NCBI GenBank assembly: GCA_048885535.1 | Contig: JBHLLO010000002.1 | Location: 31,081 to 95,080 of the forward strand | Reading direction: 5' to 3' | Length of the DNA: 64,000 nt | Source: Candidatus Hermodarchaeota archaeon | GTDB taxonomy: Archaea; Asgardarchaeota; Lokiarchaeia; Sigyniarchaeales; SOKP01 | In this document: piece after piece, positions 6,505-13,272 of the stretch | How positions within the stretch are numbered: position 1 is the first letter of the stretch | Layout: each line of letters begins with the position of its first letter | Position numbers and translations under genes: made by a program | The notes under the pieces: generated by a model | Told to the model about the DNA's origin: nothing | What the model saw: the letters and a program-made list of their open reading frames with translations, nothing else | Database searches by the model: none

Positions 6505-7086
6505 ATGGGAAGAAGAAAAAGAAAACAACAGACATATAAAAGAGTTAAGAAAGTACCAAAAATATTTACTTGTCCTTCATGTGGAGAGAAGTCTGTAAAA
6601 GTTGAGGGGCTTAGAAAAGGCATAATTGCAACAGTTAAGTGTGGCTATTGTGGTTTAACAAAAGACGTATTAGTTAATTCAATATCAGAACCTGTTGACG
6701 CTTTTGGTGATTTTATTGATGTTTATTACGCTGATCAAGAAATGCAACGACTAGAGAGACGAGTTGAAAAGTTAAAAGAAGAAAATGCATGGGGTGAATT
6801 AGCTCTATGCTATTCAATTTTATCTGATCTTTGTAAAGTAAAGGCTGCGGAATTATTAGAAGATGAGGAGAACACGGATTTAGATGAAGTTAATAATTGG
6901 AAGCTAAGATCAGAAGAGTATAAGAAAAAAGAAAAAGATGCTCTTCATCAACTAGATCTCCTTGAAATGGAAAAAGGTATAAAAACTGATGAAGAATCGC
7001 TATTTTCTGAACATGATGAGAGTAGTATAAAAAAGGAGAAAAAAATTGATGATATCTTTGATGATCCTGGGTTTTTAGAGTTCTAA
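6505..7086 (+). CDS. elf1: Transcription elongation factor Elf1 with C-terminal extension
   Basis: MGRRKRK...PKIFTCPSCG...CGYCG...EPVDAFGDFIDVYY is the Elf1 signature. Confidence 0.9.
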   Translation: MGRRKRKQQTYKRVKKVPKIFTCPSCGEKSVKVEGLRKGIIATVKCGYCGLTKDVLVNSISEPVDAFGDFIDVYYADQEMQRLERRVEKLKEENAWGELALCYSILSDLCKVKAAELLEDEENTDLDEVNNWKLRSEEYKKKEKDALHQLDLLEMEKGIKTDEESLFSEHDESSIKKEKKIDDIFDDPGFLEF

Positions 7087-7094
7087 AATATAGA

Positions 7095-8801
7095 CTATTC
7101 TTTTAAGATTTTAGATTTGATATTCTGGGGGATATATTTCCATATTGGTAGTTTTAAAATAAAATCATAAAACTTTTTCCGATTTAATTTATTTTTTAAA
7201 ATAAAGTAACCCCAATTATAAAAAGCCAATCTATTGAAAAGGTGCATTAAATTTATACCAAATGGGTTATATTTTGAAGTTAAAAAGCTTGCAATGTAAG
7301 CACCTAACCTTTTTGTATGTGGAATGGATTCTGGATAAATCGATTCGGACAGTGGTCTATTAAATATTTCATAAATTGAAAATATTGGAATAAGTGCATC
7401 TAAAATTTTACTAACTTTGAGATCATAATTTTGACTATTAATAGAGTACATAGAGAGTTGATTTAGCTCTTTTATCGCAAAGTTAAAATAGCGTTCTTTG
7501 AAATTTAACCACATTTTTGCCATTAAATCCTTTATTTCAACTATTTCATTAAGGATCTCTTCTTCTTCAAAATCAAAGCCATATTTTTTTTCATAATATT
7601 TTAGACATAATAAAAAAATCGAATCTATTGATTCATAGTTTAATTCTTCATCATTTTTCTTGCCTTGAATTAAATACTTCATTTCTTCATTTGTTAAAGG
7701 ATGTAATGTATGAGTATATAGTGGAGTTGTCCATAATAGTTTCAAAATTTTTTCCATAACGTAGATATATAGGTTAAATTTCTCAATCTCAAAAAGTTTT
7801 TTAGAAGATTCAAGTATAGCCCATTTAAATCTTTTTGATCTATTGAAAAATAATTTTAGCTTATTATATCGGCTTAATCTACTTTTTAGATTTCTTTTTT
7901 CATTTTTATAGACTATAATTTTTTCAATTAAAATTTTTTTAAATGATATGAGTTTCTTAATATATGCATAAAAATCTATGTTATAGTTCTCATTCACTTT
8001 ATCATGAGGAATTAAAGGAATATTTAATATTTTTTTAGGCGGAGTTAATTCAATACTCATAGAGTGATCTCCAATTGAATAGGAAAAGTAAATTTCTTGA
8101 AGAACTTCATCTAATGATCTAAAAGTCCCAAGATTTTTTGGATCTTTAGTAAAATATCCATGTAAAAGAGTATCTATGCCTTTATAGACGTTGTTATTAT
8201 ATTCTGAGATAATTATTGACTCAAATTCCCCAGGGTGATGTCTTTTAATATTATATCTTTTGGATACTAAAAAGATTGCCTGGTTTGCTCTGTGGCATAC
8301 AGTGTGACTCCATTTTAAAATTGGTTCCAAAATTTTTCCATAAGTCAATATATATCCATAGAATTCAGGACCAAAATATATTGGAAAACCAAATCCACGA
8401 GATGTTGCAAATGTAAATTGAAAGAGGTGTCTTACTTTCTCCCCTTTTAATAATCCTGGGAATTTATAATGTAATACAAGCTTAGGATATAATGCATCAC
8501 AACCTAGATTCATCCAAGCTTCGAATAAAATGAAACTATCAGGAAATTCCGACGAATCTCTATTGTAAATTAAATCACTCGTTAATGTATCTAAAGCCGA
8601 TGGAAGTAAATAAAGCTTATCTCCTTTATAATTGATAGTTTCACGTATAAAAGGTTTTATTTGATTCTTTATTTGAGCTTTTTTATAATAATAGCGATTC
8701 ATTACTCTTATTAATGAAGGAATCTCTAAAATCTGCCTTTTGAGATCATGGGAAACTTTTATAGTAGAATAGCCTTGAATTTCATGTTTAGATTGCTCCA
8801 A
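7095..8801 (-). CDS. Hypothetical protein (568 aa)
   Basis: Long ORF, TTG start, no recognisable motif. Confidence 0.8.
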   Translation of the reverse strand: MEQSKHEIQGYSTIKVSHDLKRQILEIPSLIRVMNRYYYKKAQIKNQIKPFIRETINYKGDKLYLLPSALDTLTSDLIYNRDSSEFPDSFILFEAWMNLGCDALYPKLVLHYKFPGLLKGEKVRHLFQFTFATSRGFGFPIYFGPEFYGYILTYGKILEPILKWSHTVCHRANQAIFLVSKRYNIKRHHPGEFESIIISEYNNNVYKGIDTLLHGYFTKDPKNLGTFRSLDEVLQEIYFSYSIGDHSMSIELTPPKKILNIPLIPHDKVNENYNIDFYAYIKKLISFKKILIEKIIVYKNEKRNLKSRLSRYNKLKLFFNRSKRFKWAILESSKKLFEIEKFNLYIYVMEKILKLLWTTPLYTHTLHPLTNEEMKYLIQGKKNDEELNYESIDSIFLLCLKYYEKKYGFDFEEEEILNEIVEIKDLMAKMWLNFKERYFNFAIKELNQLSMYSINSQNYDLKVSKILDALIPIFSIYEIFNRPLSESIYPESIPHTKRLGAYIASFLTSKYNPFGINLMHLFNRLAFYNWGYFILKNKLNRKKFYDFILKLPIWKYIPQNIKSKILKE

Positions 8802-8940: not shown

Positions 8941-9405
8941 TTAACTTGGTGTTTTTCGTTTATTAAAAAGTTGTTTAAGTTCACTCATTATAGCTCCTCT
9001 CAAAGTTATTGGACTAGCAGGTCGAGCGGATCCTGGACCTCCAGGTGGACCTCCAGGGGGCGGTGGTGGACCTCCAGGGGGTGGACGAGGACTTCCTGCA
9101 GGTGTACCACTGGGTGGACCTCCAGGGGGTGGAGGAGCACTATTTGGAGCTTTTGGTGCGGATACTATAGGCGCTACGGTACCTCCAGTTGACTTATAAA
9201 TAGCTATTTCGTTACTCAATGTATTAACTTTAGTTTCTAATGTTGATAATTTTTGATGAATAGATGATAATGATTGATCTACTAAATCAGGAATTCTAAG
9301 AATCATAGACATCATTCTTTCGACAATATCTCCGAAAGCATTTAACTTTTCTTCGAGAGGAGCCTTTCTAGTTTCTTGCATGAAATTTGCGAATTCTTCT
9401 GCCAT
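8941..9405 (-). CDS. Coiled-coil + polyproline + amphipathic basic C-terminal helix protein (VASP/WASP-like architecture)
   Basis: Heptads LSSIHQKLSTLETKVNTLSNEI; APPPPGG/RPPPGGPPPPPGGPPGG; C-terminal LRGAIMSELKQLFNKRK. The CDS is secure; the function is inference. Confidence 0.75.
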   Translation of the reverse strand: MAEEFANFMQETRKAPLEEKLNAFGDIVERMMSMILRIPDLVDQSLSSIHQKLSTLETKVNTLSNEIAIYKSTGGTVAPIVSAPKAPNSAPPPPGGPPSGTPAGSPRPPPGGPPPPPGGPPGGPGSARPASPITLRGAIMSELKQLFNKRKTPS

Positions 9406-9547
9406 TTTTTTATCTCAATTTTTATAATTAAAGAATTATACAATAATTTTTCTAATAATTATATATCTGAATTATTTAATAAATTTAAGTCCGTGTGTAT
9501 TAAAACTATTTTGAGTAAAATTATAAAAAATATTAAAAAAAAAGAAG

Positions 9548-10180
9548 TTAACTTGATTTTGATACAGAATCTTTTATAACCATCCACAATTCATCTAATT
9601 CATTTCTCACTTCTAAAAATTGATGAATTTTTTTCAATAATACATCTCTAGCTATATCAAAGTCTCTTTGATAATCATTGAATTCTGCATCTAAAATTTT
9701 AAGTTTTTCCCCTTCAATTAGTTTATTTTTCATTTTTTCAACATTTAGAGCCTTTTTAATGACTGCATTTCTTTTATTGGCTACTTCATTTAACGCATCT
9801 GCAAATTCTATTTTTTTCTCAATAAAATATTCTTTCTTCAAAGCAAGGTTTTTAATTGCATCTATGTATTTATTATTCACTGCTATATATCCATCATTTT
9901 TACGAATGATATCTAAATATAAATTTATCTCTTCTTCTTGAATATTTGATTTTTTCTCTCTTACTAAAGTTTGCATTTGTTTAATTACGTCTCTAAAAGT
10001 CCGATTTAACATTTCTCTTCCTAAATTTGCTTTAGTAAGATTTTCTGCATATTTTTTTTGAGCATTGATAAGATCATATTGAGCTTTTGCCAGTTTTCTT
10101 ATTTGATTGACTAACTCTTTCTCTGTTCCTGCTAATTCAAGCTCATCCTCATGCGTAATAATAGGGCTCATTTTTATCAA
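9548..10180 (-). CDS. All-helical protein, BAR-domain-like
   Basis: ~210 aa with long amphipathic helices and no Pro after residue 6; basic tip KRNAVIKKALNVEKMKNK followed by EKLKILDAEF resembles SNX-BAR helices 2-3. Start may be the ATG at 10171. Confidence 0.6.
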   Translation of the reverse strand: MIKMSPIITHEDELELAGTEKELVNQIRKLAKAQYDLINAQKKYAENLTKANLGREMLNRTFRDVIKQMQTLVREKKSNIQEEEINLYLDIIRKNDGYIAVNNKYIDAIKNLALKKEYFIEKKIEFADALNEVANKRNAVIKKALNVEKMKNKLIEGEKLKILDAEFNDYQRDFDIARDVLLKKIHQFLEVRNELDELWMVIKDSVSKSS

Positions 10181-10270
10181 TTTTTATTAAAGATTAATTA
10201 TATTAATTTTTAGTATGTTTTTTATGCCAATACTTAGTTATATATTTTAGTTTTTTAAATTTATTCATAA

Positions 10271-11305
10271 TTATAACGGAAATAACGCTGTTAAGATATT
10301 GTCTCTATAGTTTGCCTTTATAACTTTAGCCTTGATTTTTTTGTTTAAAATTTCATCAGAATAAAGGAAAGGTTTTTTTAATAAGACCTTTATACCAAAA
10401 TTTCTACTAATTTTTCCAATACACTCATAATTCCAACGCCCTATTGATACTATCTCCAATTCTATTATATCATGTTTTTTTAAATTAATGTTTGAAACAG
10501 GAAGGCGTTTATGAATCCCAAAATCTAAAGGTCCGAGTTTTAATTTGATATTGTATTTTTTTTCTAACTCAGTTAAATGTTTATAGAAATAAGTCCATGA
10601 TTTTGGACGAATTTTTTTTAACTTTCTTCCTGTTTTATATATTAAGTATTTCTGAATGCCAATTTGGACCTTTTCTTTAGAGTATCCTTCATTCCTTAAT
10701 TGAATGACAAATTTAATTATATCCTCAATATCTTTATCATTTTGGTTTGGAAACCATACAGGTGCAATTAATACATTAATATTGGAGTCTAACAAGTAAT
10801 AGATGTTCTGGATAAGAGCCTCAAGATTGTATTGCCTACAATCGCATAAATAATTTGCTTTGCTTTCATTTAGTGTATTTAAACTAATATTTATACGTGT
10901 AAGATTTAAGAGATTCAACTTTTTAATAATTTGTTTTGATAGTAGCAACCCATTACTTTGCATTGAGATAATTTTTACTCCCTCAATTTCCCAAAGTTGG
11001 CTTAGTAACCTATACAATTCGGAGTATAAAAGGATTTCACCATAGGGAGCAATATGAATTTCTATATTAAAATTTCCTTTAATAGTGACAGCTTTTCTTA
11101 CTTCTTTAGCCAAATAATTGGAATTTACTATAAAATTAGTATTATAATCACCTGCATTTACAAAACAATATTTACATTTCAAGTTACATAAAGTTAAAGG
11201 TTTTATTTCAATTACATTAGTACTACGATCTATTAAACCAATAAAATCAACCCCCATTAGGGGTATTTCTGATTTTTCATCAATATATATTGTATTAGTA
11301 GTCAT
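10271..11305 (-). CDS. Radical SAM protein (archaeal family, C-terminal TRAM-like region)
   Basis: CNLKCKYC motif; GLIDRSTNVIEIKP N-terminus; SMQSNG. Confidence 0.88.
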   Translation of the reverse strand: MTTNTIYIDEKSEIPLMGVDFIGLIDRSTNVIEIKPLTLCNLKCKYCFVNAGDYNTNFIVNSNYLAKEVRKAVTIKGNFNIEIHIAPYGEILLYSELYRLLSQLWEIEGVKIISMQSNGLLLSKQIIKKLNLLNLTRINISLNTLNESKANYLCDCRQYNLEALIQNIYYLLDSNINVLIAPVWFPNQNDKDIEDIIKFVIQLRNEGYSKEKVQIGIQKYLIYKTGRKLKKIRPKSWTYFYKHLTELEKKYNIKLKLGPLDFGIHKRLPVSNINLKKHDIIELEIVSIGRWNYECIGKISRNFGIKVLLKKPFLYSDEILNKKIKAKVIKANYRDNILTALFPL

Positions 11306-11336
11306 ATGAGTTTTAGGTTAATACTTTTTCATTTCT

Positions 11337-12410
11337 CTAAGGTTTATACCTCAAAATAGCTACTATATCACCTAAAGCAATAATTTGTTGACCAGTAGGT
11401 TGTTCACTACTCAAAATGTAATATTTCCCATCAGATTTTTCTATATCAGTTAAAATCTCTTCAATTTCAAGTTTTTTCTCTTTTGAGATACCACGTATTA
11501 AAATATCTGTAATAAATAATTCTTCTATCACTCCACTTTTGGATAAATTAGAGATCTCTTTCACTCCAATAGCAATTAAGTCTGGATCAGTTGCTAAAAT
11601 TGCAAAAATTTTCTCTATCTTATCTGTTTCTTGAAAAATTTTTACCTTTTCTTTTAAATTCTTTAATTGGGGAGATTTTAAGGTTTCAAATATTGCACTC
11701 TCAGTACCTGAGCTTGCATGAATAATATTAATTTTAGATAGATAATCCGGTTGTTTCTTGTCTTTAAGGTATTTTAGAAATTTGTCTTTAATATTTCCAG
11801 GACCACACAAGATAATTAGATTTATATTTATGTTTTTGACGTTTTCATCCAATACTTTATTAATATCACCAAAAAATTCTTCATATGCTTTATTTCGATG
11901 GATTTGTTCATATCTTTTTCCGGGAATTGTTTTTTTAATAGTGGCTATTCTTGTATGACTAAAGTTAGTGATAAGTGCAGCATTTGCTAATCCGCTTTCA
12001 ATTGCAATTATAAGTAGTACAAAATTAACATCAAATTTTGAAAATTCCGTTAATCTTTTTATCTCACTCCTTAACCACATCTCCTTTATAATACTTAATT
12101 CGTTACCCACTTCGATATTAAATGTATGATAAGTTCCGAAACTCACAAAATCTTCAGGACCTTCACTAATTGTACCTTTAACTCTTAATCTATTTGAAAA
12201 TTCATGGAATGAAACAGATTCTACCTTTAATTTTATCCACATTTTTTTTCGTTCTCCTTTTGTACCTTCCCTTAATACTACTCTTCTAGAAGTTCGCGTA
12301 GAAACATAATCATTCTTAGAAATAACATTATAAAGTGTCCATAAATCATTTAATGTTTCAATTTTAACAATGACTTCTTGATTTTTATTATCTATTTCAA
12401 GAATCTTCAA
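11337..12410 (-). CDS. pelota: mRNA surveillance / ribosome rescue protein pelota
   Basis: NDLWTLYNVI, FHEFSNRLRVKG, GTYHT, IPGKR and C-terminal AILRY; TTG start. Confidence 0.95.
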   Translation of the reverse strand: MKILEIDNKNQEVIVKIETLNDLWTLYNVISKNDYVSTRTSRRVVLREGTKGERKKMWIKLKVESVSFHEFSNRLRVKGTISEGPEDFVSFGTYHTFNIEVGNELSIIKEMWLRSEIKRLTEFSKFDVNFVLLIIAIESGLANAALITNFSHTRIATIKKTIPGKRYEQIHRNKAYEEFFGDINKVLDENVKNININLIILCGPGNIKDKFLKYLKDKKQPDYLSKINIIHASSGTESAIFETLKSPQLKNLKEKVKIFQETDKIEKIFAILATDPDLIAIGVKEISNLSKSGVIEELFITDILIRGISKEKKLEIEEILTDIEKSDGKYYILSSEQPTGQQIIALGDIVAILRYKP

Positions 12411-12542
12411 ATATCAAATCAACTTTCTTAAACTGGTTATTCCTAATTTAGTTAAAGAATAGATATTAGAAAAGCTTACTTTTTTAGAAGGTATAAACAG
12501 TAAATAAATAAAAAAAGGAAAATGAAACAAAAATACAAAGAT

Positions 12543-12695
12543 TTATTCTTTTTCTCCTAAGGCTTCCCTAATTTTTTCAAGTTCTTCCATTCTTTTCTTC
12601 TTTTCTTCTTCCCTTTTTCTCAGTTCTTCCACACTAACCTTTTGGAGAGTGACTCCCTTCTTAATCTCATCTTGTAACTCTTTATCAATTGGCAT
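12543..12695 (-). CDS. 50-aa microprotein with WH2/actobindin-like motif followed by a charged helix
   Basis: Manual translation MPIDKELQDEIKKGVTLQKVSVEELRKREEEKKKRMEELEKIREALGEKE*; SD-like AAAGGAG ~10 nt upstream; fills an otherwise empty 400-bp gap; below the ORF-track size cut-off. Confidence 0.8.
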   Translation of the reverse strand: MPIDKELQDEIKKGVTLQKVSVEELRKREEEKKKRMEELEKIREALGEKE

Positions 12696-12819: not shown

Positions 12820-13272
12820 TTAAAGAGTTATTTCCATTAAATAAGCACTTTCTCGATTACTATAATAATTTTCAATTTCTTGAACTATTTGGAAATTAAA
12901 TTTTTGATAAAGTCTTATTGCAATCCAATTTTTTTTATTAACAGTTAATATAATTTTCTTTATTTCTTGATATGCTTTGATTAGTTCTAATGCTGCTTGA
13001 AATAAGTATGAACCATAACCCTTATTTTGATAGGTTTTTTTTATTAAAAAGTTTATTATATTAACTCTATCTCTTCCGTCTCGAATAGCAATTATATAAC
13101 CAATGATATTAGAGCTGTTTTTGCTCAATAGCTTTAAAAATAAAGAATTTCGTAAAATCAATTTTGTCATAGTTTGTTTTGAAAATGAATCTTGTTTGAA
13201 TATCTGGTACTCCATTTTCATAATTTCCTTTAAATCATCTAAAACGACTCTCTTTATCTCCAAATTATTCAA
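12820..13272 (-). CDS. GNAT N-acetyltransferase, RimI/Ard1-like
   Basis: YQNKGYGSYL, LTVNKKNWIAIRLYQKFNF, YYSNRESAYLM. Confidence 0.9.
   Translation of the reverse strand: MNNLEIKRVVLDDLKEIMKMEYQIFKQDSFSKQTMTKLILRNSLFLKLLSKNSSNIIGYIIAIRDGRDRVNIINFLIKKTYQNKGYGSYLFQAALELIKAYQEIKKIILTVNKKNWIAIRLYQKFNFQIVQEIENYYSNRESAYLMEITL

Follow-up and report, generated by a model that had tools for sequence, protein, structure and literature searches.

A WH2-like microprotein and a BAR-fold protein paired with a polyproline adaptor as two separate candidate units of actin control in a Lokiarchaeial genome

The window analysed here is a stretch of 64,000 nucleotides from Candidatus Hermodarchaeota archaeon (Asgardarchaeota, Lokiarchaeia; assembly GCA_048885535.1, contig JBHLLO010000002.1, positions 31,081 to 95,080), which is contig C2 of an assembly of 3.09 Mb that is 91.6% complete and has about 29% G+C. 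A first-pass annotation, made from the sequence and its open reading frames (ORFs), had placed five genes on one strand of it and had read three of them, coding for a VASP-like protein, a BAR-like helical protein and a WH2-like peptide of 50 amino acids (aa), as a single locus for actin regulation and membrane shaping. All five were confirmed as minus-strand ORFs and are real genes (Table 1). We call the 154-aa protein the adaptor, the 207/210-aa protein the BAR protein and the 50-aa protein the microprotein; no significant Pfam or NCBIfam match was found for any of the three, and the source databases give public copies of the three as Promethearchaeota or Lokiarchaeota proteins from metagenome-assembled genomes (MAGs). 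The gaps among the five genes measure 142, 90, 31 and 132 bp, and T-runs lie downstream of the 207-aa gene and of the microprotein gene, which fits the reservation made in the annotation that the genes probably have separate promoters and that their linkage may be loose. The source genome codes for two 381-aa actins (Pfam Actin 442 and 439 bits), and we regard all three proteins as candidates for control of the actin skeleton in the archaea most closely related to eukaryotes. In what follows f1 to f4, g1 and the like are working family and genus labels of the genomes compared, f1 being the family that contains the window's genus, and gene presence across the phylum was checked in 121 genomes.

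Table 1. Genes of the window that are discussed in the text, with positions counted from the first letter of the window
Gene product	Position	Strand	Features
Adaptor, 154 aa	8941..9405	-	N-terminal helical/coiled-coil domain, invariant polyproline, C-terminal basic helix (LRGAIMSELKQLFNKRK)
BAR-fold protein	9548..10180	-	210 aa from TTG; 207 aa from ATG at 10171 (public annotations use ATG)
Radical SAM enzyme, 344 aa	10271..11305	-	Pfam Radical_SAM 76 bits; bystander to the BAR-adaptor pair
Pelota (mRNA surveillance factor), 357 aa	11337..12410	-	NCBIfam TIGR00111 227.7 bits against a cut-off of 177.65
Microprotein, 50 aa	12543..12695	-	N-terminal WH2/beta-thymosin-like motif (ELQDEIKKGVTLQKV), then invariant charged helix EEKKKRxEEL
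GNAT acetyltransferase	12820..13272	-	Position next to the microprotein gene conserved in f1 and in genera g5 and g10 of f2
Elf1-like zinc-ribbon protein with C-terminal extension	6505..7086	+	Pfam 66.7 bits

Sequence comparison indicates that the microprotein gene is real and under purifying selection. Within the genus the ORF has a length of 49-55 aa in each of 24 genomes (24 of 24), and 40 of 41 relatives gave a match at E<=10, with a best E below 1e-3 in about 34 of the 41. With three diverged orthologues the ratio of nonsynonymous to synonymous substitution rates (dN/dS) came to 0.09, 0.14 and 0.12; with a near-identical one, showing only seven differences, it was 0.52. An AAGGAG ribosome-binding site stands 8 nt 5' of the ATG, and a T-rich stretch or terminator lies 3' of the stop codon. 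At least 202 relatives were found in the databases (E<=0.01), coming from Asgard MAGs and giving 80 representatives at 50% clustering; the names of the 120 members listed were all uninformative, nearly all being 'hypothetical protein'. In the alignment of 22 sequences K19 never varies, and conservation is 90% or more at L17 and V20, the three together making up an LxKV motif, and the charged segment EEKKKRxEEL that follows is fixed as strongly as these residues. The N-terminal half has the consensus ELKxEIxxGxxLxKV in 56 representatives with 33-65% identity to the window copy. The expectation in the first-pass annotation that its motifs would recur in orthologues was borne out for LxKV as well as for the PPPP and C-terminal motifs of the adaptor described below, and the described features of the window proteins are thus conserved and no product of chance.

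To ask what the microprotein resembles we used searches that presuppose no answer, namely a profile search of the PDB, Pfam scans of the representatives and of a tandem relative, and the ESM Atlas. The family profile, run against 177,635 distinct PDB sequences, gave five matches at E<=10, three of which were WH2 peptides crystallised with actin (N-WASP, 3m3n_W, E 0.0029; MIM, 2d1k_C, 0.73; N-WASP, 2vcp_D, 0.76), while the remaining two were M protein, reached through the charged helix, and a designed protein. The Pfam scan of the 56 representatives returned 73 families at E<=10, among which WH2 had the lowest E (3.6e-5). One member, P0393, scored 23.7 bits on WH2 (PF02205), above the curated cut-off of 23.1, and the other matching members (P0407, P0405, P0383 and P0378) scored 13.0-16.5 bits, below it. 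The sole Pfam match of a 488-aa tandem relative was again WH2, at 13.3 bits. In the ESM Atlas the nearest named clusters, at ranks 2 and 3, were PF01290 Thymosin with scores of 0.85 and 0.84, which we take as a lead only; Thymosin was absent from the 25 Pfam families most often matched by the 56 representatives. As for the WH2 sequence motif itself, the pattern EL..EI..G..L.KV was conserved in the family. Computation hence supports a WH2/beta-thymosin-like N-terminus of the microprotein, and the WH2-like character that had been assigned to the 50-aa peptide is upheld by the PDB profile, Pfam and ESM Atlas matches and by the fusion of the module to Asgard profilin domains described below. A eukaryotic-looking protein of 762 aa, P0414, also came up with the microprotein profile, matching it through its WH2-like part only; it carries FHA, PP1-binding and two SAP domains, and its WH2-like units, about a dozen in number, stand in tandem (Pfam WH2 18.1 bits).

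The microprotein unit was found in two further forms. Family f2 has proteins of about 480-497 aa which consist of about ten head-to-tail copies of the 45-aa unit, and in the representative search 9 and 8 matched stretches were counted in two such tandem proteins. An AlphaFold2 model of a tandem protein, made from a shallow alignment of eight rows, had a predicted local distance difference test (pLDDT) of 64 and a predicted template modelling score (pTM) of 0.17, with helices of 23-41 residues, mostly 36-38, joined by low-confidence linkers of 8-10 residues that correspond to the LxKV segments. The model, with its shallow alignment, gave no sign of a compact solenoid fold. The second form is a fusion: P0388, P0399 and P0432 have an N-terminal profilin-like domain followed by four, two and one microprotein units, respectively. 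On the fusion proteins P0388 and P0399 Pfam Profilin scored 19.1 and 21.6 bits, against a cut-off of 25, over positions 4-114 and 4-106 of 127. When compared with the PDB, the profilin domain of P0388, an NCBI Promethearchaeota MAG protein, matched 5zza_P (5.2e-8), 5yed_A, 5zzb_A and 7pbh_A, the last of which is named 'Profilin' (1.2e-4), and that of P0399 matched 5yed_A at 4.7e-4. The PDB search labels 5zza, 5yed and 5zzb 'Uncharacterized protein'; we take them to be Asgard profilins. From these sequence matches the N-terminal domain of the fusion proteins is a profilin, and the fusion of the unit to a known binder of actin monomers provides what we consider the strongest contextual argument that the unit acts on actin. 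The 202-aa profilin-like protein of the source genome has a different tail, and no profilin-unit fusion was seen in that genome. P0388, P0399, P0432, P0430 and P0418 share a conserved C-terminal domain of about 55 aa after their units, with no Pfam match.

Several observations speak against an actin role of the microprotein and have to be weighed here. Only 5 of the 56 representatives touch WH2, whereas H-NS_N and DUF3006 are each matched by 12 of the 56 through the charged helix; the window's microprotein itself has no Pfam WH2 or Thymosin match, and a PF02205 scan of the whole genome gave no match at E<=10. The best-conserved part, EEKKKRxEEL, is no feature of WH2, and WH2 is a short motif whose likeness can stem from chance or convergence. 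Among the 121 genomes the family was found in 18, all of f1 and f2 and of one order, that of the window. Its conserved neighbours are pelota, GNAT and radical SAM genes and not actin genes, and the neighbours of the tandem genes (by eye YggS-like, thermosome and methyltransferase-like) are none of them related to actin. These points could be accommodated if the microprotein were a charged helical protein unrelated to actin, engaged for instance in the quality control of translation or in ribosome association, with a WH2 likeness due to chance or low complexity, and such a role would suit the order GNAT, microprotein, pelota, radical SAM, which f1 retains, as do genera g5 and g10 of f2. However, the neighbours of the microprotein are different in g2, g9 and f4, its gene has a promoter-like region and a terminator of its own, and no ribosomal or translation family came up for it in Pfam and NCBIfam or for the 56 representatives in Pfam. 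Moreover, the residues L..I..G..LxKV are conserved in these 56 representatives, clustered at 50% identity, three independent searches led to WH2 or thymosin, and proteins from Asgard MAGs carry the unit joined to profilin domains. We consider a non-actin role improbable on this balance.

The BAR protein was modelled with AlphaFold2 from an alignment of 18 rows, and the model reached a pLDDT of 92.3 and a pTM of 0.77 with three helices at residues 7-71, 79-149 and 154-206. When it was compared with the PDB by Foldseek, ranks 1-4 were taken by arfaptin chains (E 3.4e-3, TM 0.60/0.61), and SNX1/5, Lsp1, the Syp1 F-BAR domain, ACAP4, the MIM IMD, IRSp53, FAM92A and amphiphysin came at later ranks; no match in this search reached E<=0.001. 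In the VIA structure search of 48,161 chains arfaptin again led the list, with Z 13.7 and rmsd 4.7 over 186 aligned residues, and BAR, F-BAR, I-BAR or eisosome domains filled 14 of the top 19 rows. Two points count against this assignment: in the VIA search Z values below about 13 are common for models of long helices and may mirror a common arrangement, and no Pfam BAR, Arfaptin, Vps5 or IMD family was matched at E<=1, nor anything in NCBIfam. With arfaptin and BAR domains at the top of both structure searches, the first-pass description of a BAR-like helical protein is supported, and we accept for the protein, as modelled, a BAR-type fold of three long helices. The acceptance extends to the fold only and not to curvature sensing or membrane binding. 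The N-terminus is a conserved acidic peptide and no amphipathic helix, and the net charges of the three helices are +2, +2 and -3. The protein was found in 17 of the 121 genomes, all of f1 and f2.

The adaptor family, as judged from sequence matches, is pan-Asgard, unlike the microprotein and the BAR protein: it was found in 66 of the 121 genomes at E<=1e-5, including 4/4 of f5, 16/17 of f9, 5/5 of f10 and 5/5 of f18. In 18 aligned orthologues PPPP never varies, the fifth P and the next G hardly ever do, and orthologue alignments also show a C-terminal motif with invariant I, E, L and K and an almost invariant M. The PDB profile search matched residues 35-85 to trimeric coiled coils (best E 1e-4); the ESM Atlas gave only uncharacterised archaeal clusters. 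Of the earlier assignment of this protein as VASP-like, the features hold, for the coiled coil, the polyproline and the conserved C-terminal helix are there, but it is no relative of VASP, having no EVH1 domain and no Pfam match, an N-terminal coil and a pan-Asgard distribution. True polyproline occurs in the family only in the window's order. In the window the polyproline tract forms a local G+C-rich island (9040-9140), the genome as a whole having about 29% G+C.

The C-terminal helix of the adaptor was found in other proteins as well. Arf-family GTPases end with the helical domain and the C-terminal helix of the adaptor (L076, Pfam Arf 83 bits; 408-aa protein of the source genome), and the helix alone occurs within a Ras-family protein and a membrane protein. 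Furthermore, in P0416, P0433 and P0435 an adaptor-type helix runs directly into the microprotein unit; in P0416 hhalign matched the adaptor motif profile to residues 283-302 (E 5.9e-6), overlapping the match of the unit at 293-342. Since the direct comparison of the adaptor helix with the microprotein family by hhalign was not significant (probability 1%), the link between the two helices is drawn through these intermediate proteins only, and from their sequences we infer with moderate confidence that the adaptor helix is a long form of the WH2-like helix.

Synteny was decisive for the proposal of a single three-gene locus, which did not hold. In 22 of 25 genomes of the genus the BAR gene lies next to the adaptor gene, the other three having contig breaks or no matches, and the same holds for 15 of 15 additional genomes of f1. 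Beyond f1, G030 and G034 have the two side by side in inverted order and G026 has them convergent, and in G031 and G027 one 150-aa gene stands between them; the homologue in G027 had been overlooked by the search and was confirmed by hhalign (99.2%). The pair was found together in four families, in three orientations and in two genomic contexts, and has stayed together through at least three rearrangements; outside f1 it adjoins an archease gene (Pfam 112 bits) and an RtcB-like gene (by eye), and not pelota. In family f4 (L066:2552-3007, L068:4797-5249) the 150-aa gene between adaptor and BAR gene is conserved; by eye it had seemed roadblock-like, a name which we dropped when Pfam gave nothing. 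The linkage of the microprotein to the pair is restricted to f1: in G030 it lies 77 kb from the pair, and in the other non-f1 genomes it is on other contigs or far off. Because the microprotein follows a neighbour rule of its own, the three-gene locus is a feature of family f1, and only the BAR-adaptor pair behaves as a functional unit. Two units are therefore present here, not one operon. That the closeness of the three genes is no more than a gene order inherited within one family, without joint function, is somewhat the likelier account: not only is the microprotein distant from the pair outside f1, but two unrelated housekeeping genes stand between them, and every gene comes with an intergenic T-run and an AT-rich upstream region of its own. 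This account fits the microprotein against the pair and not the BAR and adaptor genes, which are neighbours after the rearrangements mentioned, and the helix type shared through the intermediate proteins also ties the adaptor to the microprotein module.

Whether the pair contacts actin at all depends on how the C-terminal helix is read. The C-terminal anchors of MinD or FtsA and the hypervariable tails of Rab/Ras proteins offer a model in which the helix of the adaptor and of the Arf-like GTPases would be a basic amphipathic helix for membrane targeting, and the pair a membrane-remodelling or GTPase-scaffolding module with no direct contact to actin. The helix is indeed hydrophobic and basic, it follows a low-complexity linker, it is terminal in 10 full-length adaptor orthologues (in an alignment of 11 sequences) and in 12 distant adaptor-like ORFs, and it ends small GTPases which lack lipidation signals; the partner gene has the BAR fold, and in f4 a gene of unknown family stands within the pair. 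On the other hand, E, L and K of the helix do not vary within the order and persist throughout the phylum, as would suit a specific protein partner and not bulk lipid, the motif is internal and not terminal in L074, the helix continues into the WH2-like module in P0416, P0433 and P0435, and its hydrophobic moment is low (0.15 over a stretch of 19 residues). We therefore hold pure membrane targeting to be rather unlikely. Other findings tell against an actin-directed adaptor as well. The profile of the C-terminal helix found no match, and thus no actin binder, in the PDB at E<=10, and the direct comparison with the microprotein family failed as described; outside the window's order the helix is kept, and the linker shows no more than an abundance of P, A, S and T. 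In addition, in the part of PMC8410842 that deals with this binding, Loki profilins did not bind the polyproline of VASP. Against the pairing itself stand eight genomes in which the BAR and adaptor genes lie apart, two of them complete ones, G032 and G038, with a true split.

Taken together, we propose two separate units which probably both serve the actin-membrane system of Lokiarchaea, and we give this proposal about an even chance. It builds on the reality and conservation of the genes, the folds, the similarity of motifs, the fusions and the adjacencies, which were observed, while every binding step is one that we infer. In the first unit the microprotein would be a disordered peptide of the WH2/beta-thymosin type that folds upon binding, its amphipathic helix lying in the barbed-face cleft of monomeric Lokiactin and LxKV running upward along the surface of actin; the invariant charged helix could make a second contact or pair with itself. 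Actin monomers would thereby be sequestered or handed over. The relatives with about ten tandem units could line up several monomers in the manner of a nucleator, and the profilin-fused forms would unite two monomer-binding modules in one chain. In the second unit the BAR protein is presumed to dimerise and to bind membrane, and the adaptor, as an oligomeric coiled coil, would present its basic C-terminal helix on a proline-rich arm, the helix being of the same kind as that which precedes LxKV in long forms of the microprotein module. The pair might then couple curved membrane, and possibly small-GTPase signals, to a shared partner, most likely actin or profilin-actin. A more far-reaching form of the proposal, which we offer tentatively and hold to be rather unlikely, is that Lokiarchaeales own a WH2/thymosin-type module in three forms, namely an abundant 50-aa monomer binder, a nucleator of about ten repeats resembling Spire or Cordon-bleu, and profilin-WH2 fusions, and that it would be directed to curved membranes by the BAR protein and by a trimeric polyproline adaptor bearing the same helix, under the control of Arf-like GTPases.

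Asgard archaea have actin, profilins and gelsolins, but we know of no filament nucleator, elongator or dedicated monomer-sequestering peptide described for them. How the assembly of Lokiactin starts and is aimed at protrusions is the gap which the present candidates address, and they are short and easily synthesised: a 50-aa peptide, a protein of about ten repeats, the profilin fusions and the BAR-adaptor pair. If the predicted binding is true, a core principle of eukaryotic actin regulation would be dated to archaea, or a striking convergence would have been met; if the module in three forms is true, the nucleating and feeding of actin filaments by WH2 would predate eukaryotes in archaea, or would have been invented twice. 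We regard the microprotein family with its tandem and profilin-fused forms as the most valuable piece, and the separately conserved BAR-adaptor pair as the second.

A few further features of the window and of the genome were noticed. Between the Elf1-like gene and the adaptor lies an ORF of 568 aa (7095-8801, minus strand) with no Pfam or NCBIfam match. The Elf1-like protein itself bears an acidic, coiled C-terminal extension of about 100 aa, and its gene adjoins the adaptor orthologue in the complete genomes G032 and G038. The second actin paralogue of the same genome (L002:1471-3870, contig C58) has a 400-aa gene 50 bp downstream, whose product has a profilin-like N-terminal domain (PDB 5zza_P, 8.5e-9; 7pbh_A, 'Profilin', 9.5e-7) and for the remainder a TrmB-type winged helix (Pfam 43 bits); an actin gene followed by a profilin-like gene was found in at least nine other genomes of the genus. 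The 400-aa protein could be a transcription regulator that senses actin.

The literature on WH2 or thymosin in Asgard and other archaea and on BAR proteins and actin in Asgard archaea holds, as far as we found, only the WH2-like linkers of gelsolins, and no stand-alone, tandem or profilin-fused archaeal WH2/thymosin-like module nor the adaptor family, though supplementary tables may hold entries; in PMC12962969 and the structural-clustering preprint 10.64898/2026.10.28.762692 the main text, as far as its search terms reach, does not treat WH2, arfaptin or BAR domains. Lokiarchaeia are already reported to have BAR-domain proteins in the sections of PMC13716822 on L. ossiferum, where co-immunoprecipitation of Lokiactin enriched an ARF GTPase and two BAR proteins were detected, not significantly. 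Homologues of Vps5-BAR in Asgard archaea, fused to Vps28 in Thorarchaeia, are described in a passage of PMC10307638, and widespread polyproline motifs in Asgard archaea in one of PMC8410842.

When the BAR protein is set beside arfaptin and other BAR proteins, it is alike in being a monomer of about 200 aa with three long helices, the best match being 1i49_A, but has an identity of 9-11% only, no Pfam BAR family, and an acidic N-terminus in place of the N-BAR helix. The adaptor resembles Ena/VASP in joining an oligomerising coiled coil, polyproline and a short helix that possibly binds actin; it differs in that the coiled coil is N-terminal (35-85), so that the order is reversed with respect to the C-terminal tetramerisation coil, in having no EVH1 domain and no sequence similarity, and in being pan-Asgard.

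With WH2 and beta-thymosin peptides such as those of N-WASP, MIM and thymosin beta-4, the microprotein has in common a short amphipathic helix, a G-containing linker and LxKV within a 50-aa acidic-basic peptide, whereas most members of its family fall below the Pfam thresholds, an invariant EEKKKRxEEL helix follows the motif, and the family, an archaeal one, was met in a single order of the genomes searched. The similarity may come from descent or from convergence. Spire, Cordon-bleu, VopL/VopF and Ciboulot are the known proteins with tandem WH2 or beta-thymosin repeats. Like them, the f2 relatives have repeated units, about ten of about 45 aa, with predicted helices and flexible LxKV linkers, but they have more repeats and no other domains, and the linker helix is continuous with the N-terminal helix of the next unit. 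Two archaeal actin regulators are also comparable. The passages of PMC9433394 on gelsolins, and likewise the preprint 10.1101/2025.11.30.690169, describe a WH2-like linker in Loki gelsolins, and 2DGel of Loki and Heimdall (LVDV, LKDV) is, like the microprotein, an Asgard actin regulator with an LKKT-type motif; the gelsolin motif, however, is a linker inside a folded protein, while the microprotein module occurs on its own, in repeats or joined to profilin. Arcadin-2 of Crenarchaeota comes from an unrelated sequence family and a different phylum and goes with a different actin, crenactin, but it too is archaeal and binds, by a peptide, to an actin homologue in its hydrophobic groove, and this groove, according to the pertinent passage of PMC5173319, is the one shared with WH2 and thymosin.

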